Shown: in pieces, positions 11,688 to 64,000 of the stretch | Layout: every line of letters begins with the position of its first letter | Numbering within the stretch: the stretch's first letter is position 1 | Translations under genes and position numbers: made by a program | From: an uncultured Gammaproteobacteria bacterium | GTDB taxonomy: Bacteria > Patescibacteriota > Microgenomatia > UBA10105 > UBA927 | Assembly: GCA_964527425.1 (NCBI GenBank) | Contig: CAZGOA010000006.1 | Span: 13,928 to 77,927, forward strand | Length of the DNA: 64,000 bases | Direction of reading: 5' to 3' | Notes under the pieces: model-generated | What the model saw: the letters and a program-made list of their open reading frames with translations, nothing else | What the model was told of the DNA's origin: nothing | Databases searched by the model: none

Positions 11688-11690
11688 TAT

Positions 11691-12689: not shown

Positions 12690-12697
12690 TAAACAGT

Positions 12698-32466: not shown

Positions 32467-32504
32467 CATAGTTACAGTATTAAGTAACGGATTATTTTGC
32501 AAAC

Positions 32505-32575
32505 GGGCCCGTAGTACACCGGTAGTATAACTCCATGGCATGGAGTAGAAAGGGGTTCGATTCCCCTCGGGTCCA
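32505..32575 (+). tRNA. tRNA-Ala (anticodon GGC)
   Basis: Acceptor stem GGGCCCG/CGGGTCC carries G3:U70. Anticodon stem ACTCC/GGAGT encloses loop ATGGCAT. T-arm AGGGG-TTCGATT-CCCCT. No encoded CCA. Confidence 0.8.
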
Positions 32576-32616
32576 CAACAATTCATGTGTCAGGGTAAAT
32601 TGTATTAAGAGAAGCG

Positions 32617-43062: not shown

Positions 43063-43065
43063 GAG

Positions 43066-43527: not shown

Positions 43528-43532
43528 AATAA

Positions 43533-44957: not shown

Positions 44958-44961
44958 ATTT

Positions 44962-46596: not shown

Positions 46597-46605
46597 TATG
46601 TAATA

Positions 46606-48274: not shown

Positions 48275-49063
48275 ATGAAGACAATTATTTTATGCGGTGG
48301 ATTAGGATATAGATTAAAAGAAGAAACAGAATTTAAACCTAAACCTATGGTTTCTATTGGGAATAAACCGATGTTGTGGCATATTATGAAAATATATGCT
48401 GCGTATGGATTTAATGAGTTTATTATCGCATTAGGTTATAAAGGAGATTGTATAAAGGATTATTTTCTTCAACAGAAATATTTTCTTCATGATTTTACAC
48501 TCAAAACTAAAAGCGGAGTTACAAAAATATATAAAGGGAATGGAAACGCTGCTCGTGTTGATAATTTTTCTATTACGTTTGTAGATACAGGACTCGAGAC
48601 GCTGCCTGGAGAACGTATTCTTCGATGTAGAGAATTTATCCCAAATACAGATGAGCAATTTATGGTTACGTATGGAGATGGAGTATCGACTATTAATATT
48701 AAGAATTTAATTGCATTTCATAATAAGCAAGGTACGATAGGAACAATAACCGGTGTACATCCAAGAACAAAATTTGGAATGGTGAAGGTGAATACTCATG
48801 GTTTAGTAACGAACTTTATTGAAAAACCAGTGTTAAAAAATGATTGGGTAAATGGTGGATTTATGGTTTTTAAAAAAGAGTTTTTTGAGTACTTACGAGT
48901 TGGGGAAATGGAACATGAGGCAATAAAGCGATTAATTGCAAAAAAACAATTATCGTTATTTATTCATGAAGAATTTTGGCATGCTATGGACACCTATGTT
49001 GATGTGGAAAATTTAAATTCCTTATGGTATGCAAACCCACCATGGAAAGTGTGGAGTGACTAA
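48275..49063 (+). CDS. rfbF: Glucose-1-phosphate cytidylyltransferase
   Basis: The N-terminus MKTIILCGGLGYRLKEETEFKPKPMVSIGNKPMLWHIMKIY is the classic RfbF/DdhA signature. The ORF-track start at 48266 is a TTG, so the ATG at 48275 is preferred. Confidence 0.85.
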   Translation: MKTIILCGGLGYRLKEETEFKPKPMVSIGNKPMLWHIMKIYAAYGFNEFIIALGYKGDCIKDYFLQQKYFLHDFTLKTKSGVTKIYKGNGNAARVDNFSITFVDTGLETLPGERILRCREFIPNTDEQFMVTYGDGVSTINIKNLIAFHNKQGTIGTITGVHPRTKFGMVKVNTHGLVTNFIEKPVLKNDWVNGGFMVFKKEFFEYLRVGEMEHEAIKRLIAKKQLSLFIHEEFWHAMDTYVDVENLNSLWYANPPWKVWSD

Positions 49064-49064
49064 T

Positions 49065-50054
49065 ATGAAATCTTATAAACAATCATTTCCATATAAGTCG
49101 GTATTAGTCACTGGAGGAACAGGGTTTGTTGGTAGCCATCTTGTTGAAACCTTAATCGACAAACACATTCAAGTCATTGTTCCATATCGCAGTATTGATT
49201 ATGCTTCATATTTTTATAAAAAAGGATTGGAGAAAAAAGTAACTTTGGTGCCTTGCGATATAAAATCGAGAGAGCAAGTGCTGGATGTAGTTGGTAAGTA
49301 TGAAGTTTCTTTTATTTATCATCTTGCAGCTCAACCAATTGTTACGACTGCATTTTATAATCCTGTAGAAACATTACTTACAAATATTATGGGGACGGTC
49401 TATTTATTGGAAGCAGTCAAAGCACTATCACACGTTAAAGGTATTATTGTCGCTTCTTCTGATAAAGCATATGGAATGACAAAAAAAGAATATACAGAAG
49501 ATTCTCCATTGAGAGGGTTACATCCGTATGATGTTTCAAAATCTTCCTGTGATTTAATTGCACAAACATATGCAACTACGTATGATTTACCAGTAATAGT
49601 AACTAGATTTGGCAATATTTATGGTGAAGGTGACCGAAATATGAACAGAGTGATACCTGGTATTATTCAATCTATGTTGCGAAAAGAAGAGTTTATCATC
49701 AGAAGTGATGGAACATACGTACGGGAATATTTATATGTAAAAGACGTGGTGAATGGGTATATTGCTTTAGCAGAAAAATTTAAAGACGTAGTAGGCGAAG
49801 CGTTCAATTTTGGTACTTCTTACAGACGTTCTGTTATAGAGTTAGTTCATGATGTTGAAAAAATACTTAATGTAAAAGTGCCCTTTAAAATTGCCAATAC
49901 TGCAAAGAAAGAAATTCCATTTCAAGCGCTTAATTGGGATAAAGCAAAAAGCAAGCTTTTATGGAAACCAACTCATACGCTCTCTCAGGTTTTGCCGGCA
50001 ATAGTTGAATGGTACTCACATTACAATTCGTATGAGAATTTTGTTACTAGCTAA
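49065..50054 (+). CDS. rfbG: CDP-glucose 4,6-dehydratase
   Basis: This is an extended SDR. It has VLVTGGTGFVGSHL and the catalytic YDVSK, and it is syntenic with rfbF. The ATG lies 2 nt after the rfbF stop. Confidence 0.8.
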   Translation: MKSYKQSFPYKSVLVTGGTGFVGSHLVETLIDKHIQVIVPYRSIDYASYFYKKGLEKKVTLVPCDIKSREQVLDVVGKYEVSFIYHLAAQPIVTTAFYNPVETLLTNIMGTVYLLEAVKALSHVKGIIVASSDKAYGMTKKEYTEDSPLRGLHPYDVSKSSCDLIAQTYATTYDLPVIVTRFGNIYGEGDRNMNRVIPGIIQSMLRKEEFIIRSDGTYVREYLYVKDVVNGYIALAEKFKDVVGEAFNFGTSYRRSVIELVHDVEKILNVKVPFKIANTAKKEIPFQALNWDKAKSKLLWKPTHTLSQVLPAIVEWYSHYNSYENFVTS

Positions 50055-51471
50055 TAATTGGGTGGGGTGGGAGATAACAAAATTTCTTTCATCAGACACA
50101 GATGTTGATATTGTTGGACTTGGAATTCACGCACCTTCTAAACAAAAATATACCAAGTATATTCTTCAATCAGTTAATTTACCAAAGTCGAAAATTTTAT
50201 TAGGATCTACATTTAAACAATCAACAACCATTGAACGTATCAGACGATTAAAACCAGATCTAATAATCAGCGCATTTTGGGGGTATATCTTAACAAAAGA
50301 TATTATTGCTATTCCGACCAAAGGAAGTATCAACTTTCATCCAGGATATCTACCAACCAATCGAGGAATGAACCCTAATGTATGGCCGTTTATTGATAAC
50401 ACTCCCGCAGGAGTAACTATTCATTATGTTGATGAAGGTATTGATACAGGAGACATTATTGCTAGACGGAAAGTTCCTATTACTCCTTACGATACAGCAG
50501 AATCAATATATGAAAAAACAATGGCGGATATTGTTGAATTGTTTAAAGAAATATGGCCGAACATAAAAAAAGGCACTGCTCCTCGTATAAATCAGAAAAC
50601 ATTACCAGAAATATCAACGCATCATTATGCTCAAGATATTGAGTCTATTAATACTATAGATGTAGATAAAACGTATACTGGTCAACAACTTATCAATTTA
50701 CTTAAAGCAAGAAGTTATCAGGACAAGTTATTTTTATCCTATACGGATAAAGGTGATCAAGTATACCTTAGTGTACAGTTATACTCTCCAAAAAAATTAC
50801 CGGTCAATACCAAATCTGAGTATCAAAAGTATGTAGAGTATGCGTTAAAGTCATATAAAGAACCATATAGACCGTTAATAATTTCAGTACAAAATAACTT
50901 AAAAATTAAGTTAAAGCCATTTACAAGAAAAGATATAGATGATGAACAACTCGTTCAGATACTAACTAGATGGAGAAAAAAAGCCCAACCATTTTTCCCA
51001 AGTACATTTCGTGTAACCAATGAGAGGACAAAAAAATGGCTCCAATCAGAACTAATAAATAAAAACGATAGAATACTCTTTCTAATTTACTTGCAAGATC
51101 GAAAAACTCCCTTAGGACATGTTGGACTGTATCGATTTGAATGGGATTCATATTCGTGTCAAATCGATAATGTCATAAAAGGTATCAACAGGAAAGAAAC
51201 TAAAGGTATTATGACAATGGCAATACATGAATTAGGTGAATGGGCATTGAATCATCTTGGTGTTCGTACTTTAACATTATATGTCTTTGAAGATAATGAA
51301 AAAGCAGTCAATTTATATACACGCTGCGGATTCATTATAAAAAAAAGAATTCCTCAGCGATTTGAAAAACTAAACAGTCAGGAATTTCACTGGGTCAATG
51401 ATGATCGAATTTCGATAATGAAACCTGAGAGAGTATTGTTGTATATGGTCAAATATCTTTCTAAGGGATAG
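50030..51471 (+). CDS. Fusion protein: formyltransferase domain (ArnA-N/Fmt-like) and C-terminal GNAT acetyltransferase
   Basis: The N-terminal ~200 aa carry the formyl_trans_N core (HPGYLPTNRGMNPNVWPFID...GVTIHYVDEGIDTGDII). The C-terminal ~170 aa have a GNAT fold with the acetyl-CoA motif (GHVGLY...ETKGIMTMAI...LYTRCGF). Confidence 0.7.
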
Positions 51472-53641
51472 TCGTTTCATACAAACTAAAATCATAATCT
51501 GATTTTACTAATTTGCTGTATGGTTGTAATTTGGACCATAGTGCAGGATATGCATGTTTTGTTTCCCAATACGGAGAATAAAATTCTTTTTCATTGATAA
51601 ATACATAAAACGTTGAACCTCTTGCTATCTGTAAAGCATCTTCAATTTGTTCTTCACTAACGATTAAACTGCGTATGAAGGTATACGGTAAAGCTGGTTT
51701 TAAATGCAAGGCTGCGATTAAATCAATACTATTATCAAACAACACTATCTTAGAATTTTTAGGAATACTTGATAAGAAAACATATTGTTCTGATTGTTTT
51801 ACATCCCATTGTTTTAATCTGGTATGCATAATTGCAAAAATTTCTGATGTTGTATGGATAGGATTTTTCCAATATTCAACAATTAATAAGCCATTTCTAA
51901 AGGTTGCCAGCAACAGAATAAATCCGAATATGTATGTTACAACTCTGGGTAATATATGCTTATCCTTATACTGGTTTTCAATTATGTGTACTACCATCGT
52001 CATAAGTAGAATAGTAGGAATTAAGATACTGTAGAGCAGAGGAGGGAGTGATCGGCCAAGATAATAAGGAAGCAACGATAACTGTGTAAATGATACATAT
52101 AGTAATCCAATACCAATTTTATGTTGTTTGCTCATTAAATGGAGTCCCAGTACAATACTGATGACAGAAACTATAAAGGGAATAAGCATCATACCCTGTT
52201 TATCTACAGGAACTAAATAAAACCCAGAACTAAATATTTTTATGAACTCATAATACAGAGAAAAATCAGGGAACGTTTGTTTGGTTATGAGAGTAAGAAG
52301 TACAATACTAAATATTGAACCAACTAATGATGTAAGTGTAACTACACTTACTAATCGGAATAATGCAGTTTTTTTACTACTAAAAAATATTGCATAGATA
52401 CATATGCTTGCCAGTCCTGATACTGCTATACCAATACCGATTTCGAATGAAAAAAAGAACATAAGGACACTAGCAATAATAAATAAAATGAGAGGTAACT
52501 TTTTAGAATTGTGTATATAAGAAGCAAGAAAATAGAAAGGAAAAATCATAGGACCTAAACGCAGAGGAGTAAAAGCTGGTGCACCAATCAGTGACCATTG
52601 ATCTTCAAAATAAAAAGACCTATTTATTAGCGTATAGTAAACAGCTGTAAAAGTTCCAAGTGCAGAGAGAATATTGTTTTTTGTGATTTTTTTTAAAGTA
52701 ATGTAAAAAAATACATAATATACAAATAAAAATAATAAGGTAACCATTGATGTAAATTCTCTTGAAAGTGGGAGAAAAGGGAATGCTTTTATCCATATCA
52801 GCCAAGGCAATAAATAGATGATTCCGTATTGGCTAATAACATCTACAAATGGTGTGGCACCGGTAATAATATGATATGCAGGCAGAGTCGTAAAAAATAA
52901 ATCACCATAATATCTATCCAGAGTAAGAAATGGTAATAATACTAATACAAGAATGATTATTGTTGCGAATGTGATTATAGGATTAATAAATTTTATTGAA
53001 CGTATGTACTCGAATACCTGTTTTATAGCAGGTTTTATTCCCAACAAAAGGGGTAATACTATAAAAAGATAACTATACTGCATTATGATCTTATCAGGTA
53101 AAATTATGGCTGAAGAATCAATCGTTGGTGGAGAAAAGAGATACACCCCCGCATCTAATTCCAGGAAACCTGGAATAAAATATTTGGCAACCGAAGCGAT
53201 GAATAATAGCTGGGTAGTTTGAGCACTAAATGGTTTTTGTAAGATAAATAATTGAAACACAAGCACTATCATAAACAGGAGATAAAAGCGCATATCAGTT
53301 GCCAGTTGCAGTGGAAAAGGATAATCACCTACAACAAGTAATCCAATAAAGGTGCTCGGGAGAATATACATTGATATTTTTTCTAGAAGAACTCTATTTT
53401 CTGAAGTTGTGAACAAGTAAAGCAGTAATTGAGAAACAAGAATAAATAACGCGACAAGAATAATAAAACAAATATAAAAAAGTACATCTTTTTCTGGTGC
53501 AAAATGTCCGTCTATTAATAACGCGTAGGCTGGTTCTGTAGGAAGGGGAATACGAGAAATAATCAGTGGAGTTAGTATTGAAGAAAAGAAAGACGAAAGA
53601 ACAAACTGCAACGATAAAATAGGTAGAGCAAATAAATTCAT
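51461..53641 (-). CDS. Large polytopic membrane protein (GT-C-like candidate)
   Basis: 726 aa with more than 14 TM helices and a C-terminal ~150-aa soluble domain. No named motif. Confidence 0.4.
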   Translation of the reverse strand: MNLFALPILSLQFVLSSFFSSILTPLIISRIPLPTEPAYALLIDGHFAPEKDVLFYICFIILVALFILVSQLLLYLFTTSENRVLLEKISMYILPSTFIGLLVVGDYPFPLQLATDMRFYLLFMIVLVFQLFILQKPFSAQTTQLLFIASVAKYFIPGFLELDAGVYLFSPPTIDSSAIILPDKIIMQYSYLFIVLPLLLGIKPAIKQVFEYIRSIKFINPIITFATIIILVLVLLPFLTLDRYYGDLFFTTLPAYHIITGATPFVDVISQYGIIYLLPWLIWIKAFPFLPLSREFTSMVTLLFLFVYYVFFYITLKKITKNNILSALGTFTAVYYTLINRSFYFEDQWSLIGAPAFTPLRLGPMIFPFYFLASYIHNSKKLPLILFIIASVLMFFFSFEIGIGIAVSGLASICIYAIFFSSKKTALFRLVSVVTLTSLVGSIFSIVLLTLITKQTFPDFSLYYEFIKIFSSGFYLVPVDKQGMMLIPFIVSVISIVLGLHLMSKQHKIGIGLLYVSFTQLSLLPYYLGRSLPPLLYSILIPTILLMTMVVHIIENQYKDKHILPRVVTYIFGFILLLATFRNGLLIVEYWKNPIHTTSEIFAIMHTRLKQWDVKQSEQYVFLSSIPKNSKIVLFDNSIDLIAALHLKPALPYTFIRSLIVSEEQIEDALQIARGSTFYVFINEKEFYSPYWETKHAYPALWSKLQPYSKLVKSDYDFSLYETTIP

Positions 53642-53729
53642 GTAGATGGAATAGTAGGGTGTTACCTATGTTTGTATAGGTACTATAATAGTATACTTAA
53701 CAATACTATCAATTATCGTATCACTAATA

Positions 53730-55334
53730 ATGAGTAAAGTATCTTCATATTTCATCATCTCGTTTTTTAGTATTTGTTTAATAATAATTGGGTTATTTTT
53801 ACGATTATATAAATTGGATTCTGTTCCGTATGGATTAACGAATGATAATGTCGGAGGATATTATGCAAGCAGTATATTAATGAATACAGGTAAGAATTTT
53901 GAAGGAGTCTTTTTACCCCGTTCATTTCAGTTGGATAATTCTTTTTCTGCAGGGTTTGTTTATTTTTATGCACCGTTTACCATGCTTTTGCCAAAATCTC
54001 CATTTGCGGTGCGTTTTCCAGCTGTGTTAGCTAGTCTGATCGCTATATGGTTGTTATATAAGGTTGCCTATAATTTATTTAATAATCGAAATATTGCGTT
54101 GCTAAGTGCTGTAGTGTTAAGTGTATCTCCCTGGCATATTCATATGAATAGGGGAGCGTATGATGGGCCTATTTCTCTTTTTGTAATTTTATTTCTCTAT
54201 GCTCTTTTGTTATTTATACGATATAAGAACATATTACCGATGATTATTGCATTTCCTTTAGCTTACTATGTTTATCATCCAATAAAAATTTTCTTATTAG
54301 CGTTTATTCCTTTTATTAGTATTAATTATCTTCAATTTTTATTCTCACAAAAAAGAAAAGTCTTTTTATTTGGAATTGTATTCTTTGTAACAGTTATTTC
54401 TTTTTTTGTTGTCATTAAACAGGAGGGGGTTAATAGACAAGAAGTATTATTATGGAGTAATCAATCAAATGCTTCATCATTTGTAAATTGGGAACGAACG
54501 GTTAATCTTGCGCCTCAATTTATGCGTGTTTTATTTAGTAACAAAGTAACATACTACGGCTTTGAAATTGCGAGTAGATACATGGATGCCTTTTCTTTTA
54601 ATCGATTATTTATATCTGGTGAGGGTGGAATCTACGGTACGTACAGACATGGATTTTTTTACTTCATAGAATTAGGATTTTTTATTGTGGGTTTATATTA
54701 TCTTGTTACAAAACGCACTTATAAGGAAAGCATTATTGTCCTGGGTGGTTTATTTATTGCTCCTCTACCTACTGCATTTTCAAGTGATTTTTCGATGGGT
54801 TTGAGAAGTATAAGTATGCTGCCATTTATGAGCATTATTATTGGCTGCGGCATGTTTTATCTTACTGAATATATTGGTACCTTTCGAAGATTTTCTGTCC
54901 CCATAACAACATTAATTTTTTTAGGATATATGTTTTCTGTAATTGCCTTTGGGTATTTATATTTTTATAGATACTCCGTGTATGGAGCCGAATATTATTT
55001 TTCAAGCAACAGAGAGGTTATTGAGTATGTTACTACAAAAAAAGACAGCTACGATTCTATTCATTTTGTAAATACGGGTCCTATGTTTTTATTTCAATAT
55101 GCTTTTTTTAGTGATACAACTATGGATGAAGTACTAGTAGCATGGAAATCAGAGTGGCCAAAATCTCTTGGGAAAATAAAGTTTATTAATGATTGTGATA
55201 CATCAAAACTTTCTCTACAACCTAAAGAAATGTATATCGCACCAACGTCTTGTTTTAAAGAGACTACTCCATCAGCCACTATTGTTGACAAGGCTGAACC
55301 GTTGCGGGTTATCTGGAATATATTTGAGCGTTAA
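53730..55334 (+). CDS. GT-C-fold polytopic membrane glycosyltransferase candidate (PMT_2/ArnT-like)
   Basis: 534 aa. TM1 is followed by LRLYKLDSVPYGLTNDNVGGYY. The 12-13 TM helices and C-terminal soluble domain give an ArnT-like topology. Confidence 0.5.
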   Translation: MSKVSSYFIISFFSICLIIIGLFLRLYKLDSVPYGLTNDNVGGYYASSILMNTGKNFEGVFLPRSFQLDNSFSAGFVYFYAPFTMLLPKSPFAVRFPAVLASLIAIWLLYKVAYNLFNNRNIALLSAVVLSVSPWHIHMNRGAYDGPISLFVILFLYALLLFIRYKNILPMIIAFPLAYYVYHPIKIFLLAFIPFISINYLQFLFSQKRKVFLFGIVFFVTVISFFVVIKQEGVNRQEVLLWSNQSNASSFVNWERTVNLAPQFMRVLFSNKVTYYGFEIASRYMDAFSFNRLFISGEGGIYGTYRHGFFYFIELGFFIVGLYYLVTKRTYKESIIVLGGLFIAPLPTAFSSDFSMGLRSISMLPFMSIIIGCGMFYLTEYIGTFRRFSVPITTLIFLGYMFSVIAFGYLYFYRYSVYGAEYYFSSNREVIEYVTTKKDSYDSIHFVNTGPMFLFQYAFFSDTTMDEVLVAWKSEWPKSLGKIKFINDCDTSKLSLQPKEMYIAPTSCFKETTPSATIVDKAEPLRVIWNIFER

Positions 55335-55337
55335 CAT

Positions 55338-56939
55338 ATGATACATTCTTTTTTTCCTAAGATTACTAGTACGTTTTTGATCATGGTTGTAGTTGTTTGT
55401 ACTATTCTCTTCTCAAATATTATTCCAATATTATCTATTCAGCAAAAACTTCCTGGTGCAGTAGCTTATGGTTTTTTTAAGTCCCATCCTGAAGATTATT
55501 TTCAATATGTTTCAATGATTCGACAAGGCAAGGAGCATAATTCATTATTATTTACTAATCAGTATGATTCAACACAGTTGCGAACGTATTTTATTCAGCC
55601 TTTCTATAATATCGTCGGTGTTGTTACACAATTTCTCCCTTTTGATCAGTTTCAAATTTTTTTTTTAATAAGAATGATATCAGCGTTGTTGTTTTATCTG
55701 GTTTTTTTAGAATTAGTATTTAAAGTATTGTCCCAAAACCGACAACGATTATTTGCTATTCTTTTATTCAGTACTATTACTGCATTTAGTGTTGCTTCTG
55801 TGTGTGAGGGTATAGCTTGCAGAATGGATCCTCAAACATATGCAGGTGCTTATTTTAATGCTTGGTTACGACTGTTAATTTTACCTCCACATCATTACCT
55901 GGCATTGTTGTTGGTTATGAAATTCTTAATACGTATACCTAATCTAAACATATCTTACAGATCTTTATTAATTACTATACTTATGTCTGTTGTTTTAGGA
56001 TTATTACATCCATATATTGCTTCAAGTTTTTTTAGTATATTTTTCATCACTGTTTTTGTGAAAAGTATAGCTAAACGGGCATTTTTAAAAGAACTCACAG
56101 TACATTTATTCATCCTGGGATTTATTGTTGCTTTACTGGCTGTTTATACAAAAATTCAAACAAGATATGAGTTGGGAAGTGTATTTAGATATGTTCAATA
56201 TGAGTATGTTATTGAGTATATAAAAGCGCTTGGAACAGGAAGTTTGCTGTTGGTGTTATCAATGTTTTTTATACGAAAGATAGTAAAACTACCGCATGGT
56301 ATTCCCATGGTAGTATGGGCAATATTTCCTGGTTTAGCCATACTTACTCCTATAATACGAACACTATTAGGAGAATATAGAATTTTTCAGATAATGCAGC
56401 ATATACCAATAAGTATATTAGGAGGATTTGTTTTAGATTACATAATAAAAAAATTCAAGATCATAGGAATCATTACAACAACGGGTCTTTTTTTAGTAAT
56501 ACTGTATATACTCGCCCCTGTGTATCTTATTCATTGGAAGTATATGACAAATCCAGGTAGTGTCGAATTTTTTCAATATAAAATATTTTCAATTGTGAAG
56601 TCCATGGTCCCTTCATTAAACATGACTGGACCAGCATACAAAGTAGTACTCAGTGGAGATATGGTATCGGCTATGTTACCAGCATTAGGACCTTACAGAG
56701 TTGTAAATGCAAGAATAGGGAATACCCCTGATTTGGAGCAGAGCTTAGTGGACGTGCAACAGTTTTATTATGGTCTGCCTGAACAACAATTAATACGATT
56801 TTTTAATACATATCATCCATCAAGTGCTTTATTTGGGATTGATACAGTAACGTTTTCGACTAGTCAGTATACTCATTCACCATATTTTACAGAAACAGCA
56901 CGTATGGGAGAAATATCACTTGTAGAAATTAACCGTTAA
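55338..56939 (+). CDS. Polytopic membrane protein, paralog-family member 4
   Basis: 533 aa. The loop-1 motif is DYFQYVSMIRQGKEHNSLLFTNQYDSTQLRTYFIQPFYNIVGVV. Confidence 0.5.
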   Translation: MIHSFFPKITSTFLIMVVVVCTILFSNIIPILSIQQKLPGAVAYGFFKSHPEDYFQYVSMIRQGKEHNSLLFTNQYDSTQLRTYFIQPFYNIVGVVTQFLPFDQFQIFFLIRMISALLFYLVFLELVFKVLSQNRQRLFAILLFSTITAFSVASVCEGIACRMDPQTYAGAYFNAWLRLLILPPHHYLALLLVMKFLIRIPNLNISYRSLLITILMSVVLGLLHPYIASSFFSIFFITVFVKSIAKRAFLKELTVHLFILGFIVALLAVYTKIQTRYELGSVFRYVQYEYVIEYIKALGTGSLLLVLSMFFIRKIVKLPHGIPMVVWAIFPGLAILTPIIRTLLGEYRIFQIMQHIPISILGGFVLDYIIKKFKIIGIITTTGLFLVILYILAPVYLIHWKYMTNPGSVEFFQYKIFSIVKSMVPSLNMTGPAYKVVLSGDMVSAMLPALGPYRVVNARIGNTPDLEQSLVDVQQFYYGLPEQQLIRFFNTYHPSSALFGIDTVTFSTSQYTHSPYFTETARMGEISLVEINR

Positions 56940-57016
56940 TATTTCTTATGCATCGGATGTAAACGTTTTGTAATGGATTTATTGGAATGTATTCTTTTGA
57001 GCGGGAAGGTTGAAAA

Positions 57017-57547
57017 TTATTTTGTTTTGGGAAAAAGAATGAAAATTGATAATTGAATGAGTCTTCTGATTTTAAACATGAATGGTATTGTATTAAGGAT
57101 GTAGTCGTTTTTATCCTTTAAAAGAGCATGTTGAGTTTCCAATCTGTTGAGCCGCCGATTAATGATGACTTCTTTGTTATAGAGTTTCTGAAGATTATGT
57201 ACAGTTATTCCTTTTTTATGTTGAGCTATTAATGATAATAATTTAATCGTAATAGATGATTCAGTATAGCTATAGAACGTAAGTAAATAAAACGCTAATA
57301 CGATTAAGTTAATACATAATGAAACACTTGCATAAAACAGTATATTTATCAACGGATATTGAAGTACAACTAAGGTTAATCCAATTAGTAGACAATTCAA
57401 TATTGCGATGAGTATCGCACAAAGTACCAACCAATAATATGATGTCAGTTTATTCGTATATTTCAAAATGAATCGTTGTAAACACAGAAATAAAACACAT
57501 GATACTAAAGTAGTGCTGATTAGAATGATATCCATGTTATCCACCAA
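57017..57547 (-). CDS. Membrane protein with N-terminal TM helices and a C-terminal winged-helix-like domain, paralog A
   Basis: 176 aa. Three or four TM helices are followed by ITVHNLQKLYNKEVIINRRLNRLETQHALLKDKNDYIL, an apparent MarR/PadR-like wHTH. Confidence 0.45.
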   Translation of the reverse strand: MVDNMDIILISTTLVSCVLFLCLQRFILKYTNKLTSYYWLVLCAILIAILNCLLIGLTLVVLQYPLINILFYASVSLCINLIVLAFYLLTFYSYTESSITIKLLSLIAQHKKGITVHNLQKLYNKEVIINRRLNRLETQHALLKDKNDYILNTIPFMFKIRRLIQLSIFILFPKTK

Positions 57548-58046
57548 TAGATAATCCTAAACTTTTACTTATAGAGTAAAAAATGTCCCATATTGTATTA
57601 CCACGCTTGCTAAGTCTATACGTATTGACGTTGGATTTTATTATTATGTTTTTTGACTCCAGACTATCAAGTCGTTTAGTTATTAATAAATCATTAGAAA
57701 AGAGGGAGAAAATATCTTTTTTCGAGAGTATTTTTTTATGTAAAAATGCATCAAAAAGTGTATCAATAGGAGTTTGTCCTTCCTGAAATTGAAAAAAAGA
57801 ATACAGAGTAACAATACTAGATAGTAGTATAAAAAGCATTAAAGAGGTTACAGGAAGCGGAGAGGTATCTGTATGTATTAGTTGATAGTTCGTTGCGTAG
57901 AGAACAACTAATAGTAAAAATGAGACAATAGTAACGAATATACTAACCACAAACGGTTTTACTTGTTTAGAGCATACGCGATAAATAACACTTTGGAGAA
58001 TAAGCGAATTAATAAACATGAGCATGAATAACAGAACTTCATTCAT
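57537..58046 (-). CDS. Membrane protein with N-terminal TM helices and a C-terminal winged-helix-like domain, paralog B
   Basis: 169 aa. Three TM helices are followed by ILSKKDIFSLFSNDLLITKRLDSLESKNIIIKSNVNTYRLSKRG. The gene overlaps paralog A by 11 nt. Confidence 0.45.
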   Translation of the reverse strand: MNEVLLFMLMFINSLILQSVIYRVCSKQVKPFVVSIFVTIVSFLLLVVLYATNYQLIHTDTSPLPVTSLMLFILLSSIVTLYSFFQFQEGQTPIDTLFDAFLHKKILSKKDIFSLFSNDLLITKRLDSLESKNIIIKSNVNTYRLSKRGNTIWDIFYSISKSLGLSIGG

Positions 58047-58071
58047 ACGAATTACGCGCAGGATACATTGA

Positions 58072-59376
58072 TTAGACCTTTTGGGATTTCATAAACGAGT
58101 GAATTGTATTGACAACATACGAACGCATCGTATTTGTTATACCGGGATATACTCCAATCCAAAACCCATCATTCATGATGCGGTCAGTATTGGTTAATGC
58201 TCCGACGACACGATACTGTTGGTGTTTCATAAATGCAGGATGTTTAAGTAAATTTCCCGCAAACAATCGTCTTGTTGCTATATGGTTTTTTTCAAGAAAG
58301 TCAATTAAATCATTACTTGTAAACGGTGCGGTAGGGGATACTAGTATCATAAAACCAAACCAACTTGGAACTGCCTCATTAAGATGTTTGGTGAAGTTTA
58401 GTAGTGGTTCATACTGTTGTAAATGTTTTTTATAGAATGCAAATGTCTCGTTTCTTCTTTTGATAAAATCTGGAAGTTTTTGAAGTTGAGCTAAGCCTAT
58501 TGCCGCCTGCATATCTGTTAATTTTAGATTATATCCAATTTGTGAATATATGTATTTATGATCATATCCATACGGTAGATTGCCTAATTTCCAGTCAAAT
58601 CTCCGGTTACAGGTATTATCTTTTCCTGTTTTGCACCAGCAGTCTCTGCCCCAATCTCTGAATTGTCTTACGCTTCTGGATACTAAAGAATTATTTGTTA
58701 CGACTGCACCACCTTCTCCCATAGTCATTTGGTGTGCCGGGTAAAATGAATATGTTGCAACATGACCAAATGTGCCTACTGGTTTACCTTGATAGGTTGC
58801 TCCTAATGCATCACAACAATCTTCTACTAACCATAAATTATGCTCTTTACACAAAGAGACTAGTTCTTTAAGCGGCATAGGATTTCCTAAAGCATGCGCC
58901 ATCATTATTGCCTTAGTTTTTGGGCTAATAGCTTTTCGTAGATTTTCTATTGAGACATTCTTTGTGTTTAAATCTACGTCAACAAATACTGGTATAAGTC
59001 TATTTTGGATAATGGGATTAACTGTCGTTGGAAATGACGCAGCAAGTGTAATAACTTCATCACCTGGTTTGAGCGCTTTATCGCCAAACACATCTGATGT
59101 AAGAGCTGATAACGCCAAGAGGTTTGCAGATGAACCAGAATTTGTTAATGATACTAATTTGCATCCACAAATCTTTGAAAATTCACGTTCAAACTGTTGT
59201 GCAAATGCTCCTTCTGTCCACCAACCATCTAAAACAGCTTGTGTGGCATTCATAATTTCTTCATGATCGAAAATCTTTCCAGAGACAGGTACGGTAGATG
59301 ATCCGGCAATAAAACGAGATGGCTTATGATTTTTTTTATAGTATGACGTAATGGATGATGACAATGTTTTGTTCAT
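58072..59376 (-). CDS. rfbH: CDP-4-dehydro-6-deoxyglucose 3-dehydrase (E1; RfbH/DdhC-like). A PMP-dependent DegT-family enzyme.
   Basis: 434 aa. Near-colinear conservation with RfbH as I remember it: FIAGSSTVPVSGK...LDGWWTEG...NSGSSANLLALSALTS...ALKPGDEVITLAASFPTTVNPIIQNRLIPVFVDVD...EDCCDALGATY...FRDWGRDCWCKTGKDNTCNRRF (Cys cluster)...TDRIMNDGFWIGVYPG. Confidence 0.8.
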   Translation of the reverse strand: MNKTLSSSITSYYKKNHKPSRFIAGSSTVPVSGKIFDHEEIMNATQAVLDGWWTEGAFAQQFEREFSKICGCKLVSLTNSGSSANLLALSALTSDVFGDKALKPGDEVITLAASFPTTVNPIIQNRLIPVFVDVDLNTKNVSIENLRKAISPKTKAIMMAHALGNPMPLKELVSLCKEHNLWLVEDCCDALGATYQGKPVGTFGHVATYSFYPAHQMTMGEGGAVVTNNSLVSRSVRQFRDWGRDCWCKTGKDNTCNRRFDWKLGNLPYGYDHKYIYSQIGYNLKLTDMQAAIGLAQLQKLPDFIKRRNETFAFYKKHLQQYEPLLNFTKHLNEAVPSWFGFMILVSPTAPFTSNDLIDFLEKNHIATRRLFAGNLLKHPAFMKHQQYRVVGALTNTDRIMNDGFWIGVYPGITNTMRSYVVNTIHSFMKSQKV

Positions 59377-60338
59377 AGCATTGAATGCTCAGGTTTTTTG
59401 TCGAGATTAATAGTTTGCTTAATAATAAATCTTGGCCGGGCCTTTACTTCTAAAAAAATTTTAGCCAGATATTCTGCAATGACACTTAAGCTTAATAGCT
59501 GTACACCACCCAAAAACAGCGTTGCTATTAAAACTGTCGGTACACCAGGTGCACGTTGGTTAAAAACTAGTACCAAGAGTAAATTAAGAATAATAAATAA
59601 TATTGACATGATAGTAACAGAAAACCCTAAATAAGAAATCCATAGTAACGGTTGAAACGAGAAGTTTAAGATAATTTGTTTTGCCCACCATAATCCTTTA
59701 AAAAAACTCTCTGTTGATTGACCATGTATACGTGCTTGGCGGACATAGGGTATGCCTATTTGTTTAAATCCAACAAACGCTCTTAAACAGCGGACGAAAT
59801 AATCGTATTCCGGTATCCGTAATAATTCTTTTACAACCTGTTTGCTCATTAACGAGAATTCTCCAGCATCAAGGGGAACAGAAATGTATGCTAGTTTCTT
59901 AAGTAGGTAATAAAACGTTTTATAAGAAAGATTCCAAAAAAATCCATAGCCATCTCTTTTCGTTCTAATTCCGTACACTACATCATATCCAGCTTTCCAG
60001 GTTTGAATAAATGTAGGGATTATCTCAGGTGGATCTTGAATATCACCATGTAATAATACAACTGCATCGCCTGAAGCGTACGTCATACCCGCTAAAAAAC
60101 TTGGTTGAGGAGATCCAAAATTTCGACTCATTTTAATTACTTTAACTCGTTTGTCTTTTTTTGTTAATTTTGTGTAGATTGAATCTGAGTTATCGGTAGA
60201 ATCATTGTCAACAAAAATAATTTCTGGAGAATAATTTTTTAACTTTTTAAATATATTCACAATTCTTGAATACATTTCTTGAATATTCTCTTGTTCGTTG
60301 TAGCAGGTGATTACAATTGATAGTATTTCTCGTTTCAT
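59373..60338 (-). CDS. GT2 polyprenyl-phosphate glycosyltransferase with C-terminal TM helices (ArnC/GtrB-like)
   Basis: 321 aa. The N-terminal GT-A has SIVITCYNEQENI...IIFVDNDSTDNS. Two C-terminal TM helices are present. The size and topology are identical to ArnC-type lipid-linked sugar synthases. Confidence 0.75.
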   Translation of the reverse strand: MKREILSIVITCYNEQENIQEMYSRIVNIFKKLKNYSPEIIFVDNDSTDNSDSIYTKLTKKDKRVKVIKMSRNFGSPQPSFLAGMTYASGDAVVLLHGDIQDPPEIIPTFIQTWKAGYDVVYGIRTKRDGYGFFWNLSYKTFYYLLKKLAYISVPLDAGEFSLMSKQVVKELLRIPEYDYFVRCLRAFVGFKQIGIPYVRQARIHGQSTESFFKGLWWAKQIILNFSFQPLLWISYLGFSVTIMSILFIILNLLLVLVFNQRAPGVPTVLIATLFLGGVQLLSLSVIAEYLAKIFLEVKARPRFIIKQTINLDKKPEHSML

Positions 60339-61456
60339 GACCGTACTTTTAAGACCCGTCGTATCATTCTTGCAATATAATCTACTTCTTTTTCTTTTAA
60401 CATAACTCCACTTGGTAAATTTATACTGGAATACGAAACAGTATGAGCTTGAGGAGTCGGTATATGAGGAGTTTTATATAATTTGAAATCACTAATAGGA
60501 TAAAAAAATGCCCGGGTATCAATGAGTAAGTCTTTTAACTGCTTTCTCATCATGTCTCTATCGATGTGTAATGATTTATCTACTGTAATTGAAGTCATCC
60601 AAAAACTACTTGATACACCTTTTCGTTCAGGATTAAGACTTAATCCTTCAATACCATCCAGTCGCTCTTTATACCACGTATAAATTTTTTTCTTCCTCGC
60701 GATGAGATCATCAATATCTTCCAGTCTTGAAAGTCCCAGTGCTGCCTGAATATTAGACATCGGATACATATATCCTATGTCATTTATCCAAAATTGTCTT
60801 TGTAAATCAACGCCATGATCTACTAATGATAATGCTTTTTGGTACCAGTCTTTACGATTGGTAACAAACATGCCACCTTCCCCTATAGCCAACATTTTTG
60901 CTCCCTGGAAACTAAAGGCAGCACAATCGCCAATTGAACCTAATTGTTTACCATTTAAGGTGCTACCTAACCCTTCGCATGCGTCTTCTATGACGATTAA
61001 GTTGTGTTTTTTTGCAATGGTTAATATGCCATCCATATCTGCAACATTGCCGTATAAATGAACTGGCATGATTGCTTTTGTCTTTTTAGTAATATATGTT
61101 TCTACTTTGCTTACATCGATACTCCAGGTTTCTTTGTCAATATCAACCAGTACTGGTGTTGCTCCGCAATAATGTACTGCATTTGAACAGGCAACATACG
61201 TCATATCGGGTACGATAACTTCATCTCCAGGTTGAAGACCTGCCAGGACACATCCTAAATGCAGAGCAGAAGTACCAGTGGATACCGCTAGAGCATATTT
61301 AACGCCTAAATATTCTGCGAATTGTTTTTCGAATTTAGCGATATAGTCACTGTGATGAGTATTCCATCCATTTTTGGCCGCATCTTTTACATAAGCAAGA
61401 TCATGCGGAGAAATTTTGGGGCCAGCGGTTAGGATTAGCTTTTTAGGTGAAAACAT
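60335..61456 (-). CDS. DegT/DnrJ/EryC1/StrS-family PLP-dependent sugar aminotransferase
   Basis: 373 aa with the characteristic AVSTGTSALHL...PGDEVIVPDMTYVA...DACEGLGS...FSFQGAKMLAIGEGGMFVTN. Confidence 0.8.
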   Translation of the reverse strand: MFSPKKLILTAGPKISPHDLAYVKDAAKNGWNTHHSDYIAKFEKQFAEYLGVKYALAVSTGTSALHLGCVLAGLQPGDEVIVPDMTYVACSNAVHYCGATPVLVDIDKETWSIDVSKVETYITKKTKAIMPVHLYGNVADMDGILTIAKKHNLIVIEDACEGLGSTLNGKQLGSIGDCAAFSFQGAKMLAIGEGGMFVTNRKDWYQKALSLVDHGVDLQRQFWINDIGYMYPMSNIQAALGLSRLEDIDDLIARKKKIYTWYKERLDGIEGLSLNPERKGVSSSFWMTSITVDKSLHIDRDMMRKQLKDLLIDTRAFFYPISDFKLYKTPHIPTPQAHTVSYSSINLPSGVMLKEKEVDYIARMIRRVLKVRS

Positions 61457-61465
61457 ATAAGAATA

Positions 61466-62401
61466 TTAGTGTTTTTTTTGTAATACTTCAATTCTGTTTT
61501 TAATAGCATTACAAATAGAATTTACAGAAAGATGATTCACTTCTCGCATATATTCTTGAGGACCAATTGTTTTTGTAAATCTATCTGGTATACCAAAACG
61601 CAACACAGGAATTTGAATTGCGTTATCTGCTAAAGTTTCTAATACTGCGCTTCCTAGTCCTCCAATGATACTATGCTCTTCAAGTGTGACGAGGAGAGGA
61701 GTTTTAGCGGCAGCTTTCTTTATTGCTTCATTATCAAGTGGTTTAATCGTATGCATACTTATGAGTTGTGCATGTATATTTGTTGTTAATAATTGTTGTC
61801 TGACAAGATGTCCTGTTTCCAGCATCGTTGATGTTGCAATGATTGTTACGTCTTTACCTTCAGCCATTGATATTGCTTTTCCAATAGAAACGGTTTGATT
61901 TGATGAATGGAGTATAGGTTCTCCTTTTTTACCAATTCGAAGATATGTTGGTTGTGGATTGGTAAACAGCTGTTTGGTCAGTGCTTTTACTTCATGGGGA
62001 TCACCGGGTGCTAGAATTCTTAAGTTTGGAATGGTTCGTAGCATTCCTATATCCTCAAGAGCATGGTGTGTATGTCCGTAAGGTCCATATGAAAACCCAG
62101 CTCCAACCCCTACAATAGTAACTGGTAGATGTTGGTAACAAATATCATTACGAATTTGTTCAATATTGCGAATAGTAATAAAAGGAATGATGGAATAAAT
62201 AACAGGCAGGTAACCCTCACTTGCAAGTCCAGCTGCTATTCCTGTCATTGATTGTTCGATCATGCCACAGTTTATGTACTGATTTGGACATGCTTCTATT
62301 AAAGGCTCAAACACAGAAAACCCCAAATCTCCGGTTAAAAGAATTAAGCGTTTATCAGTTTTTGCTAATTCTAAGAATGTATTTGCAAACGTATTTCTCA
62401 T
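61466..62401 (-). CDS. Transketolase, C-terminal section (split TK)
   Basis: 311 aa. Pyrimidine-binding and C-terminal domains are present (GDLGFSV...MIEQSMTGIAAGLASEGYLPV...). It overlaps the N-terminal section by 4 nt. Confidence 0.8.
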   Translation of the reverse strand: MRNTFANTFLELAKTDKRLILLTGDLGFSVFEPLIEACPNQYINCGMIEQSMTGIAAGLASEGYLPVIYSIIPFITIRNIEQIRNDICYQHLPVTIVGVGAGFSYGPYGHTHHALEDIGMLRTIPNLRILAPGDPHEVKALTKQLFTNPQPTYLRIGKKGEPILHSSNQTVSIGKAISMAEGKDVTIIATSTMLETGHLVRQQLLTTNIHAQLISMHTIKPLDNEAIKKAAAKTPLLVTLEEHSIIGGLGSAVLETLADNAIQIPVLRFGIPDRFTKTIGPQEYMREVNHLSVNSICNAIKNRIEVLQKKH

Positions 62402-63207
62402 AGTTTTTTTAGTAAATCAGTATATTCTTTTTCTGTTGGAGCTTTGTATTGTGAAGAAATTTGATTAATATGCTGAGGAACACCGCCTTTTCCTTTGATG
62501 GTTTTTGCTCGGATGACAGTTGGTTTATCCATTGTATGTTGAAAACTTCTGTATGCTTTTTCTAATTGAGCATACGAATGTCCGTTAACTGTGATAACGT
62601 TGCAACCGAAGCTTTTCAGTTTAGATGATAATGGATATGTGTTAAGAACGTCTTTTGTATATCCAAATCCTTGAAGCTTATTTTCGTCAATAATGACGAG
62701 TAAATTATCAAGTTTGTGGTGTGCTGCAAACAGGAAAGATTCCCAAGTGGTTCCTTCATTTAATTCTCCGTCGGAAATAATCACAATGGTTTTCCAATGT
62801 TGTTTTTTACGTTTTGCTGCGAGTGCAATACCTACAGCTAATGGCAGTCCATGTCCTAATGAACCCGAACTGTAATCTATTCCAGGAAGAGATCCTCTAA
62901 TAGGATGACCAGCTAACAATCCATTTTGTTGTTCATATCCCTTAAAGAGTTCTAACGGGAAATATCCTCTTCTTGCCAGTACTGCATACAGCGCTTTTGC
63001 ATCATGTCCTTTGGAGAAAACTACTCTATCTCTGGTTGGCATGTCGGGTTTTTGAGGGTTAATATCGAGAAGCTTAAAATAGAGAGAAACAAGTATTTCC
63101 ACACAAGATAAAGCTCCACCAGCATGTGCACTTTGGGCTGTAAAACTCATGGTAAGAATATCGTGGCGGATATGTTTTGAGATGTCTTCTAAATTTTTTA
63201 CGTTCAT
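62398..63207 (-). CDS. Transketolase, N-terminal TPP-binding section (split TK)
   Basis: 269 aa with GHPIRGSLPGIDYSSGSLGHGLPLAVGIALA and the TPP motif ISDGELNEG. Confidence 0.8.
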   Translation of the reverse strand: MNVKNLEDISKHIRHDILTMSFTAQSAHAGGALSCVEILVSLYFKLLDINPQKPDMPTRDRVVFSKGHDAKALYAVLARRGYFPLELFKGYEQQNGLLAGHPIRGSLPGIDYSSGSLGHGLPLAVGIALAAKRKKQHWKTIVIISDGELNEGTTWESFLFAAHHKLDNLLVIIDENKLQGFGYTKDVLNTYPLSSKLKSFGCNVITVNGHSYAQLEKAYRSFQHTMDKPTVIRAKTIKGKGGVPQHINQISSQYKAPTEKEYTDLLKKL

Positions 63208-63301
63208 GATTTTGGTACAGTTACTCTACACTATTTTAGGCAAATTTCTAGGGGGAATCTATGGGTTTTAATAGAGTAAAAACATAATTAATAAATCGTA
63301 C

Positions 63302-64000
63302 TTATCGCACGATGTTTAGTAGTGTATCGACAACCATTTGAACTTCTTTTTTTGTTATCGCTGTGAAAACAGGCAGGCATACTGTTTCTTCTGAGGCAAG
63401 TTCTGTGTTGGGGAGTGATAAGGTTTTATACATACGTCTATATGGAGGTTGTAAATGAGCGGAGGGTATGCCTTGACGAATAACGATTCCGTTATCCAGC
63501 ATCTTTTGCATGACACGATTTCTTTTCCCTTTATACCCTTTTAACCGTACCTGGTAGGTCTGAAAGGTGTGGTGATATCCGTTGGGAACATAGGGTGGAG
63601 TAATAACGGGGTGATTGTCAAATGCCTGTGTGTACTGTTTTGCTACTTCCTGTCGTTTTTTCATGATGATATCGAGTTTATGAAATTGAGTTATGCCGAG
63701 TGCTGCATGGATATCACTCATACGGTAATTAAACCCTACAACGGGAAATTCTTCCGGAATGATTGTTTTGCTGGCATTGCGTGTTGCAACGGATACATTT
63801 GCTCCATGTGCTCTCATAATCGAAGCCAAATCTGCCCATTGTTTATTACGTGTTACTACTAAACCACCTTCTGCTGTCGTAATTGCTTTTCTGGGATGGA
63901 ATGAAAAAACGCCTATGTCTCCAAATGTGCCAGCATGTTTCTGTTTATACGTACTGCCGAATCCACATGCTGCATCTTCTAAAATGAGTAATTTGTGCTT
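63302..64000 (-). CDS. DegT-family sugar aminotransferase/dehydratase (partial; the 5' part continues beyond the window end)
   Basis: The frame is open all the way to position 64000. It translates as ...LILEDAACGFGSTYKQKHAGTFGDIGVFSFHPRKAITTAEGGLVVTRNKQWADLASIMRAHG...FNYRMSDIHAALGITQ. The ORF-track start at 63829 is an internal TTG. Confidence 0.75.
   Translation of the reverse strand, partial: KHKLLILEDAACGFGSTYKQKHAGTFGDIGVFSFHPRKAITTAEGGLVVTRNKQWADLASIMRAHGANVSVATRNASKTIIPEEFPVVGFNYRMSDIHAALGITQFHKLDIIMKKRQEVAKQYTQAFDNHPVITPPYVPNGYHHTFQTYQVRLKGYKGKRNRVMQKMLDNGIVIRQGIPSAHLQPPYRRMYKTLSLPNTELASEETVCLPVFTAITKKEVQMVVDTLLNIVR

Follow-up and report, generated by a model that had tools for sequence, protein, structure and literature searches.

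A possible CDP-deoxysugar cassette with a split transketolase and a GtrB-type glycosyltransferase in a probable candidate phyla radiation genome

Which sugar would be made by a gene cluster that brings together an iron-sulfur 3-dehydrase, a split transketolase (TK), and a lipid-phosphate-type glycosyltransferase, and by what route would that sugar reach the cell surface? These questions are raised by a 64,000-nucleotide stretch of an uncultured bacterium's DNA (contig CAZGOA010000006.1, positions 13,928 to 77,927; hereafter, the window), which has a G+C content of 35% and the exact proteins of which were also found in Logan metagenome assemblies, on contigs as long as 100 kb. The nearest relatives of its 3-dehydrase (RfbH) and of its family 2 glycosyltransferase (GT2) came from Gottesman-, Roizman-, and Shapirobacteria, and the window probably derives from a Microgenomates-type bacterium of the candidate phyla radiation (CPR). 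Judged from sequence and gene context, the region could hold a copy of a cassette that is conserved among such bacteria and makes an unusual cytidine diphosphate (CDP)-deoxysugar for lipid-carrier-dependent surface glycosylation, a reading to which we give a little less than an even chance. Two known kinds of system, branched-deoxysugar biosynthesis and lipid-phosphate/GT-C glycosylation, would be combined here, with the steps beyond family assignment being predictions.

A previous reading of the same DNA from its letters and open reading frames (the sequence-only reading) had proposed an Arn-like pathway for a CDP-linked amino sugar. The genes that it named were all present at or near the positions it gave, as borne out by the open reading frame listing and family scans, and those on which the argument depends are as follows.

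48275-49063, + strand: RfbF-like glucose-1-phosphate cytidylyltransferase (TIGR02623, PDB 1TZF), putative maker of the CDP-hexose
49029-50054, + strand: RfbG-like nucleotide-diphosphate (NDP)-hexose 4,6-dehydratase, CDP specificity suggested by context
50032-51471, + strand: fusion of a sugar N-formyltransferase and a GNAT N-acyltransferase (Formyl_trans_N, N_formyltrans_C, Acetyltransf_3)
53730-55334, + strand: GT-C glycosyltransferase (PMT_2; PF13231, E=1e-10), candidate user of the lipid-linked sugar
55338-56939, + strand: polytopic membrane protein, possible GT-C, no Pfam match; paralogues at 46606-48201 and 44962-46596
57017-57535, - strand: second small membrane protein of a pair, paralogue of the 57537-58046 gene
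57537-58046, - strand: small membrane protein with three predicted transmembrane (TM) helices and a C-terminal domain of ~75 aa, no Pfam or NCBIfam match
58072-59376, - strand: E1/RfbH CDP-6-deoxy-L-threo-D-glycero-4-hexulose 3-dehydrase (NF011936)
59373-60338, - strand: GtrB/ArnC/DPM1-type polyprenyl-phosphate glycosyltransferase, the GT2 (PF00535, 102 bits), with a C-terminal TM hairpin
60335-61456, - strand: DegT2, a DegT-family aminotransferase dependent on pyridoxal phosphate (PLP) (PF01041, 364 bits)
61466-62401, - strand: TK-C, divergent split transketolase C-terminal subunit with Pyr and C domains (Transket_pyr, Transketolase_C)
62398-63207, - strand: TK-N, divergent split transketolase N-terminal subunit with the PP domain (Transketolase_N)
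63302-64000, - strand: 3' part of a PseC-like DegT aminotransferase (PseC, 322 bits), the full gene of which encodes 374 aa on Logan contig L001

The three genes rfbF, dehydratase, and formyltransferase-GNAT on the plus strand overlap one another, the first two by 35 nt. Throughout the leftward operon, from TK-N to the second small membrane protein, neighbors overlap by 4 nt (TK-N/TK-C, DegT2/GT2, and GT2/RfbH) or are separated by gaps of at most 25 nt, and co-transcription is therefore very likely. A scan of the window for consensus promoters and terminators returned fewer sites than were found in shuffled sequence. In the 94-nt gap that precedes TK-N, a weak terminator-like hairpin at 63295-63313 (- strand) extends over the stop codon of the upstream PseC-like DegT gene; it may mark a boundary between two sugar pathways, but such sites are no commoner in the window than in shuffled sequence. 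Beyond the window end, the Logan contig continues with a LegB/RmlB-like short-chain dehydrogenase/reductase (SDR; 175 bits), a NeuD/PglB-like hexapeptide acetyltransferase, the rest of the PseC-like DegT gene, and then an RmlD-like reductase. The SDR, acetyltransferase, and PseC-like DegT appear to form an amino-sugar trio of their own, such that the partial DegT gene, which had been counted as part of the CDP pathway, probably does not belong to it.

The enzymes that would open the pathway were the most readily assigned. The RfbF-like protein matched TIGR02623 with 262 bits (cut-off 300; next family, 83 bits) and, among PDB entries, was closest to the Salmonella glucose-1-phosphate cytidylyltransferase 1TZF (192 bits; next match, 69 bits), with orthologues of 63-74% identity in the cassettes of loci L007, L104, L107, and L108. 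The dehydratase scored 201 bits against CDP_4_6_dhtase (cut-off 278) and 172 bits against the thymidine diphosphate (dTDP)-type model, both below cut-off, and in the PDB its match to a dTDP-type enzyme (144 bits) exceeded that to a CDP-type enzyme (125 bits). Both of the enzyme families called rfbF and rfbG in the sequence-only reading are thus present, while the nucleotide preference of the dehydratase is ambiguous from its own sequence. The identification of 58072-59376 as a true E1/RfbH, in turn, held firmly. This protein scored 661 bits against NF011936 (equivalog cut-off 423) and aligned end to end (residues 7-428, 498 bits) with Yersinia E1 (3BCX). His215 replaces the PLP-binding lysine, the segment FYPAH215QMTMGEGG aligning with the E1 sequence FYPAHHITMGEGG, and the [2Fe-2S] motif Cys188-x57-Cys246-x-Cys248-x7-Cys256 has the E1 spacing and is kept in 90 of the 91 homologues collected. 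His215, the cysteine motif, and the similarity to E1 rule out a generic aminotransferase, the alternative identity that had been raised for this gene.

A dedicated E3 reductase (RfbI/AscD) was found neither in the window, as the sequence-only reading had remarked, nor in the CPR cassettes examined. That absence had been taken as a pointer to an unusual product, for which it is not evidence: SpnQ, the E1 homologue of the forosamine pathway, works with general cellular reductases and has no dedicated E3. Because no dedicated E3 is present, we propose that a general reductase serves RfbH. The window's sole relative of the E3 reductase class, and so its one candidate electron donor, is a 234-aa FNR-like protein (12698-13402) that has no Fe-S domain. 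This FAD/NAD(P)H reductase lies together with thioredoxin and thioredoxin reductase genes at 11364-13402.

The sequence-only reading gave the split TK little weight, as if it were a bystander, yet comparison of related loci places it among the cassette members, where it alternates with YerE-type enzymes that, like TK, use thiamine diphosphate (ThDP). In locus L104, DmpF-DmpG-YerE stands in place of the TK pair, and the locus is otherwise orthologous to the window (identities of 66% for RfbF, 49% for RfbG, 64% for GT2, 44% for GNAT, 40% for DegT, and 63% for RfbH). A module of this type has been demonstrated in the erwiniose pathway, with ErwI, ErwJ, and ErwE working on CDP-4-keto-3,6-dideoxyglucose and ErwE attaching a keto-acid-derived branch at C4 (PMC9306805). 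Among 80 RfbH loci, 33 had a YerE-like enzyme, seven the split TK, and one both. The split TK co-occurs with RfbH in Patescibacteria, Chloroflexota, Acidobacteriota, Gammaproteobacteria, and one archaeon of the Micrarchaeia, and a metagenome scan with TK-C returned 12 loci, including four close relatives. No protein of the YerE family (TPP_enzyme_N/M/C) and no extra SDR of the YerF type was found in the window operon. Based on the swap in L104 and the near-exclusive distribution of the two enzymes across RfbH loci, we read the window TK as a divergent, cassette-specific ThDP enzyme and a functional analogue of YerE. The two kinds of ThDP enzyme are able to coexist, as in loci L059 and L090 (the latter from the metagenome scan and outside the 80 RfbH loci), be it for two products or for two successive steps.

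The residues of the two subunits are consistent with this role. The closest solved relatives were those of the Carboxydothermus hydrogenoformans split TK (6YAK for TK-N, 205 bits; 6YAJ for TK-C, 185 bits). Numbered as in Escherichia coli transketolase and compared in an alignment of RfbH-linked TKs, TK-N retains His26, His66, His100, Asp155, and Asn185, with SDG for GDG and, in the window clade, Gln at the position of His261. TK-C retains Glu411 and His473, with His461 changed to Gly, Asp469 to Tyr, and Arg520 to Lys. The canonical ThDP/metal and cofactor-activating residues (GDG...N, Glu411, His66, His473) are accordingly present apart from the SDG, and the canonical sugar-phosphate residues His461, Arg520, and Asp469 are all replaced in the alignment. 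Loss of His461 extends across the RfbH-linked subfamily, the residue being kept in the C. hydrogenoformans enzyme, and at position 469 the window clade has Tyr in place of Asp, other members varying. From established TK structures, we take these three residues to hold the phosphate and the C2-hydroxyl of the sugar-phosphate substrates, and their replacement argues that the window TK is not a housekeeping enzyme. The residues H66, H100, and H473 bind the donor in TK, and DXS has Phe at the position of H100 (PMC7661550). Retention of H100 speaks for dihydroxyethyl as the donor, as in TK, from which a hydroxyacetyl branch would follow. Transfer of a hydroxyacetyl unit to ketosugars has been proposed for split TKs in the miharamycin and amipurimycin pathways and in 13 Streptomyces clusters, none of them characterized, nor has any ketone-accepting TK been characterized (PMC12247030). 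Literature searches linking transketolase with RfbH, 3-dehydrase, or O-antigen gave nothing relevant, as did those on amino-substituted 4-C-branched 3,6-dideoxy sugars.

Acyl branches may be further modified by reductases, transaminases, or oxygenases (PMC9306805), and the aminotransferase of the window is distributed as such a tailoring enzyme might be. DegT2 was LegC/PseC-like by NCBIfam, at scores under the cut-offs of those models, and its orthologues with at least 40% identity were confined to loci in which a ThDP enzyme is also encoded, namely TK in six of the eight complete loci and a YerE-like enzyme in the other two; conversely, ThDP enzymes occur without DegT2. Since DegT2 is seen only in the company of a ThDP enzyme, and since branching would turn C4 into a tertiary alcohol, the pattern agrees with a DegT2 that takes the branch carbonyl as its substrate once branching has taken place. 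For the acylation step, the formyltransferase domain had PseJ and VioF-type sugar N-formyltransferases as its best solved relatives and reached 91 bits against the ArnA model (cut-off 777). Orthologues of the GNAT domain occur as free GNATs in L007 (42%), L104 (44%), and L107 and L108 (33-36%) and within a GNAT-DegT fusion in L047 (33%). The likeliest product, as predicted from these genes, is a C4-branched, side-chain-aminated, N-acylated 3,6-dideoxyhexose. We also considered that TK and GNAT might together make an N-glycolyl donor of the quinocarcin type, an idea that was dropped because no lipoyl/E2 or acyl carrier protein partner is present.

Delivery of the sugar would fall to the GT2. 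Full-length matches (residues 6-315) were found both to GtrB of Synechocystis (5EKP, 215 bits) and to the ArnC structures 9HWJ, 9BHC, and 8VXH (122 bits); by NCBIfam, it scored 241 bits against PgfS, under the cut-off, and 141 bits against ArnC NF007986 (cut-off 529). It carries VDNDSTD and HGDIQDPPE, in keeping with the D-x-D...QDPPE catalytic motif that we take to define the GtrB/DPM1/ArnC GT-A family, and two C-terminal hydrophobic segments (~230-266 and 264-292) are predicted to be TM segments. By these features, the GT2 is a polyprenyl-phosphate glycosyltransferase of the GtrB/ArnC/DPM1 type. The sequence-only reading, which called it ArnC-like, was right as to this type, but the protein is closer to GtrB and PgfS than to ArnC and is no ArnC equivalog.

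We examined the contigs of seven GT2 homologues with 62-88% identity, in five of which the gene lies inside the cassette, though in differing gene orders:

L102: gene order syntenic with the window
L104: RfbF-RfbG-GT2-DmpF-DmpG-YerE-GNAT-DegT...RfbH
L106: RfbG-GT2-DegT-GNAT, cut at the contig end
L107: RfbF-RfbG-TKN-TKC-(DegT-GNAT, reverse strand)-RfbH-GT2, followed by a convergent PMT_2 gene
L108: RfbF-RfbG-GT2-DegT-GNAT-TKN-TKC-RfbH

Eight functions (RfbF, RfbG, RfbH, TK-N, TK-C, DegT, GNAT, and GT2) thus recur in varying order in L102, L107, and L108, while L007 carries the cassette functions minus GT2. In six further loci, from other phyla, RfbH has a more distantly related GtrB-type GT2 gene (34-37% identity) less than 100 nt away. 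Because the linkage survives gene rearrangement, which is the strongest evidence available, the GT2 probably acts on the cassette product. The coupling of GT2 to CDP-sugar genes put forward in the sequence-only reading is likewise conserved across rearranged related loci, and a PMT_2 GT-C gene is adjacent. For lipid loading of a CDP-sugar, a faint precedent may be seen in mycobacterial lipooligosaccharide clusters, in which a DPM-like GT2 lies beside a glucose-1-phosphate cytidylyltransferase and a polyprenyl-linked route was the subject of speculation, not demonstration (PMC4403928).

Taken in order, the proposed pathway would begin with RfbF making a CDP-hexose, which the 4,6-dehydratase would convert to a CDP-4-keto-6-deoxyhexose and RfbH, as an Fe-S and pyridoxamine phosphate (PMP) dehydrase drawing electrons from a general reductase, to a CDP-4-keto-3,6-dideoxyhexose. 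The split TK, in the role of YerE/ErwE, would then transfer two carbons, carried on ThDP as a hydroxyacetyl unit, to the C4 ketone to give a tertiary-alcohol branch, the carbonyl of which DegT2 would convert to an amine, and the GNAT domain, with the fused formyltransferase domain in this genome, would N-acylate that amine. The GT2 would move the completed sugar off CDP and onto polyprenyl phosphate and, after flipping, with which the small three-TM protein pair may help, the neighboring GT-C proteins (PMT_2 and the unclassified paralogues) would attach it to a protein or polymer at the cell surface. The RfbF, dehydratase, and RfbH steps draw on strong sequence evidence, and the TK, DegT2, acylation, GT2, and GT-C steps on comparative genomics. 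That the split TK was recruited independently as a second ThDP branching enzyme for CDP-4-keto-3,6-dideoxyhexose, giving with the side-chain aminotransferase and N-acyltransferases a new class of C4-branched amino sugar, and that the GT2 is at the same time the first CDP-sugar:polyprenyl-phosphate glycosyltransferase, is a joint proposition that we make tentatively and think somewhat unlikely.

Several observations weigh against the route as laid out above. Its operon contains neither an E3 reductase nor a reductase for the branch ketone. YerE-like enzyme and split TK both lie beside RfbH in L059 (5809-16405) and L090 (33-7585) and are therefore not strictly interchangeable. The best solved relative of DegT2 is GDP-perosamine synthase (316 bits), a ring-C4 aminotransferase that would fit a 4-amino product, and both acyltransferase domains are most like enzymes of 4-amino-4,6-dideoxy sugars, the GNAT resembling PseH; moreover, a single amine has no obvious need of both a formyl- and an acyltransferase domain. 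On the delivery side, known members of the ArnC/GtrB family use uridine or guanosine diphosphate (UDP- or GDP-) sugars, those of UDP being used by the best characterized relatives of this GT2, and we know of no CDP-sugar:polyprenyl-phosphate transferase. Two of the seven close GT2 homologues (L103 and L105) lie among housekeeping genes, which leaves CDP-sugar use by the GT2 a prediction, and in L047 a soluble GT2 and a Wzx-type flippase come after the cassette, as on a conventional route.

These last points bear most directly on a conventional form of delivery, in which the GT2 would load a UDP-hexose for the GT-C proteins and a soluble Leloir enzyme would use the CDP-sugar on a lipid-pyrophosphate-linked glycan. 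Both halves of this explanation have precedents, GtrB, PgfS, and CsbB for the UDP-hexose and abequose, tyvelose, and yersiniose in O-antigens for the deoxysugar, and GtrB and PgfS, rather than ArnC, are the closest characterized relatives of the GT2. The two homologues far from sugar-nucleotide genes and the arrangement in L047 also count in its favor, and other glycosyltransferases are at hand in the window, namely a GT4 (21385-22515) and a 232-aa GT2 (42364-43062). Against this, the membrane GT2 is the sole glycosyltransferase kept inside the CPR cassettes as gene order shifts, its GtrB-type counterparts stay next to RfbH in the six loci from other phyla, and no gene forming a UDP-sugar lies beside it in the window. 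We regard conventional delivery as unlikely on balance, but as the best of the alternatives.

The pathway of the sequence-only reading, taken to lead to a 4-amino-3-deoxy sugar, fares less well and strikes us as rather improbable. Here, DegT2 would aminate C4 itself to give a CDP-4-amino-3,4,6-trideoxyhexose, which would be N-formylated or acetylated and loaded by the GT2, leaving the TK to make a second, branched product or to do something else. The similarity of DegT2 to perosamine synthase speaks for it, as do the PseJ/VioF-like formyltransferase and the PseH-like GNAT, all of them like enzymes of 4-amino-4,6-dideoxy sugars, and in L007 extra SDRs after RfbH could reduce a branch ketone independently of DegT. 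However, DegT2 orthologues were never seen with RfbH minus a ThDP enzyme (eight complete loci), which C4 amination independent of branching would not lead one to expect; the ThDP enzyme, be it TK or YerE-like, keeps the company of GNAT and DegT; and the window operon, without a reductase for a branch ketone made by TK, would leave that ketone unprocessed. Given that TK alternates with YerE-type enzymes, a C4-branched sugar is the more probable product, and we place the linear branched-amino-sugar route ahead of the 4-amino product, if only modestly. As for the TK pair being a housekeeping pentose-phosphate transketolase that came to lie in the operon by chance, split TKs are real housekeeping enzymes in some bacteria and the closest structure is that of an active one, from C. 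hydrogenoformans (PMC7661550), but the replacement of His461, Asp469, and Arg520 in the RfbH-linked subfamily, the co-occurrence of the pair with RfbH across several phyla, and its exchange for YerE in L104 make this very improbable indeed.

Returning to the branched-sugar route, its closest counterpart among known systems is the pathway of yersiniose, erwiniose, and caryophyllose, which shares RfbF, RfbG, and an E1 giving CDP-4-keto-3,6-dideoxyhexose, together with a ThDP enzyme in the cassette, and the erwiniose-type DmpF-DmpG-YerE of which occupies the TK position in the CPR locus L104 (PMC9306805). The window differs in that its ThDP enzyme is a split TK, from another ThDP superfamily and with a probable hydroxyacetyl rather than acyl donor, in having an aminotransferase and N-acyltransferase instead of a YerF-type reductase, and in that the glycosyltransferase of the cassette is a lipid-phosphate-loading GT2. 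The two-subunit TKs of the miharamycin, amipurimycin, and 13 Streptomyces clusters also lie beside deoxy-ketosugar enzymes and have a ketone as proposed acceptor (PMC12247030), a likeness drawn by description; those clusters belong to actinomycete secondary metabolism, whereas TKs of the window type occur with E1/RfbH in envelope glycan loci (CPR, Chloroflexota, Acidobacteriota, and others). The window RfbH likewise resembles SpnQ in being an E1-type Fe-S/PMP 3-dehydrase without dedicated E3 and followed by an aminotransferase. The substrate of SpnQ is a TDP-2,6-dideoxy sugar, and the window protein is far closer to the CDP-specific Yersinia E1.

With the Arn system (ArnB-ArnA-ArnC-ArnD-ArnE/F-ArnT), the window shares enzyme classes, namely a DegT protein, a formyltransferase domain, an ArnC-related GT2, and a PMT_2 GT-C, and to this extent the Arn-like logic claimed in the sequence-only reading stood. 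The nucleotide would be CDP in place of the UDP of Arn, E1 dehydrase and TK steps are added, and the formyltransferase is fused to a GNAT rather than to a UDP-glucuronic acid decarboxylase domain as in ArnA, being closer to VioF and PseJ types. Among the genes of 43.5-64 kb and the flanking contig, no polysaccharide-deacetylase or EamA/SMR-type matches were found that might correspond to ArnD or ArnE/F. In the absence of these, of the ArnA decarboxylase, and of an ArnC equivalog, the scheme is better named a generic GtrB-type three-component system (lipid-phosphate sugar synthase, flippase, and GT-C) fed by a CDP-sugar cassette. GtrA/GtrB/GtrC systems, as well as CsbB/GtcA and PgfS/PgfM, have in common with it a GtrB-type GT2 with a C-terminal TM hairpin and adjoining GT-C proteins, but the window has no recognizable GtrA-family flippase, and its donor would be a CDP-linked deoxysugar from the same operon, not UDP-Glc or UDP-GlcNAc.

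The transferase and flippase components of such a system were examined among the membrane proteins. Where the sequence-only reading saw many ArnT-like GT-C candidates, two of the ten large membrane proteins tested had a GT-C family match, both to PMT_2 (53730-55334 and 37340-39067), and the remaining eight had none. The PMT_2 match of 53730-55334 is to a broad GT-C family; the orthologue of this protein in L102 (83% identity) occupies the corresponding place, and the cassettes of L104 and L107 likewise have PMT_2 genes at their side. The paralogous trio of 44962-46596, 46606-48201, and 55338-56939 (20-27% identity; 27% and 20% for the last against the other two) has invariant Y-x2-M-I and P-H-H motifs and no Pfam match, and relatives of it adjoin the cassette in L106 and L108. 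An AlphaFold2 (AF2) model of the 55338-56939 protein from four sequences was unusable (predicted local distance difference test, pLDDT, 44.2). An A8 homopolymer at 52687-52694, on the coding strand of the gene at 51461-53641 (- strand), is A7 in the 99.93%-identical contig L001, where it splits the 726-aa membrane protein into open reading frames of 337 and 362 aa; the tract may be phase-variable or an assembly error.

The two small proteins (57537-58046 and 57017-57535) are paralogues with 29% identity, in a family of 119 cluster representatives, all of ~165-185 aa, among 1.84 billion proteins. The label of winged helix-turn-helix proteins given them earlier found no significant match in its favor: neither had a Pfam or NCBIfam family match, and the family profile gave non-significant hits against PDB and Pfam (2LVS, E=0.6; SemiSWEET 4QNC, E=4.9). 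Word-indexed homologue searches returned two matches each for the second small protein and for the 55338-56939 protein, and an AF2 model of the 57017-57535 protein from a three-sequence alignment was poor (pLDDT 58.7). Such a pair is again found next to GT2 or GT-C genes in L102, L104 (4248-5242), and L103 (7929-8933), the last a housekeeping context, and an accessory or flippase component is possible.

Positions 18-64 kb of the window read as a single large envelope-glycosylation island, in which several further features were observed. An apparent second lipid-linked sugar module is located at 18471-23360:

18471-19772: FAD amine-oxidase-like gene
19896-20828: UbiA-type decaprenyl-phosphate phosphoribosyltransferase-like gene (167 bits, under cut-off)
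21385-22515: GT4
22512-23360: methyltransferase

At 42364-48201, the 232-aa GT2, which has no TM helices and weak matches to PgfS, ArnC, and PpgS, and a NeuD/PglB-type hexapeptide acetyltransferase immediately precede three unclassified large membrane proteins, and may constitute a third lipid-phosphate sugar synthase unit. A DUF2298 membrane protein (27064-29445) and an NPCBM-domain protein (35398-37314) are situated among the GT-C-like genes, and two adjacent tRNA-Ala genes (32396-32576; anticodons CGC and GGC) between a Rho/LysM-M23 block and the glycosylation island.

The surfaces of CPR bacteria, or Patescibacteria, are almost uncharacterized, and these cells rely on attaching to a host; a conserved set of genes devoted to one exotic surface sugar would provide a testable handle on the chemistry of their envelopes. 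In enzymological terms, the natural exchange of TK for YerE points to a transketolase that accepts a nucleotide-ketosugar, and the locus offers a candidate side-chain sugar aminotransferase and a candidate CDP-dependent member of the ArnC/GtrB family. The GT2 here probably loads a CDP-sugar onto a lipid carrier from which surface structures would be glycosylated, and no CDP-sugar is known to take such a route. If delivery is conventional, the window would be simply one more deoxysugar locus; if the joint proposition of a branching TK and a CDP-dependent GT2 is true, ultra-small CPR bacteria would possess a dedicated extracytoplasmic glycosylation route for a branched amino sugar.

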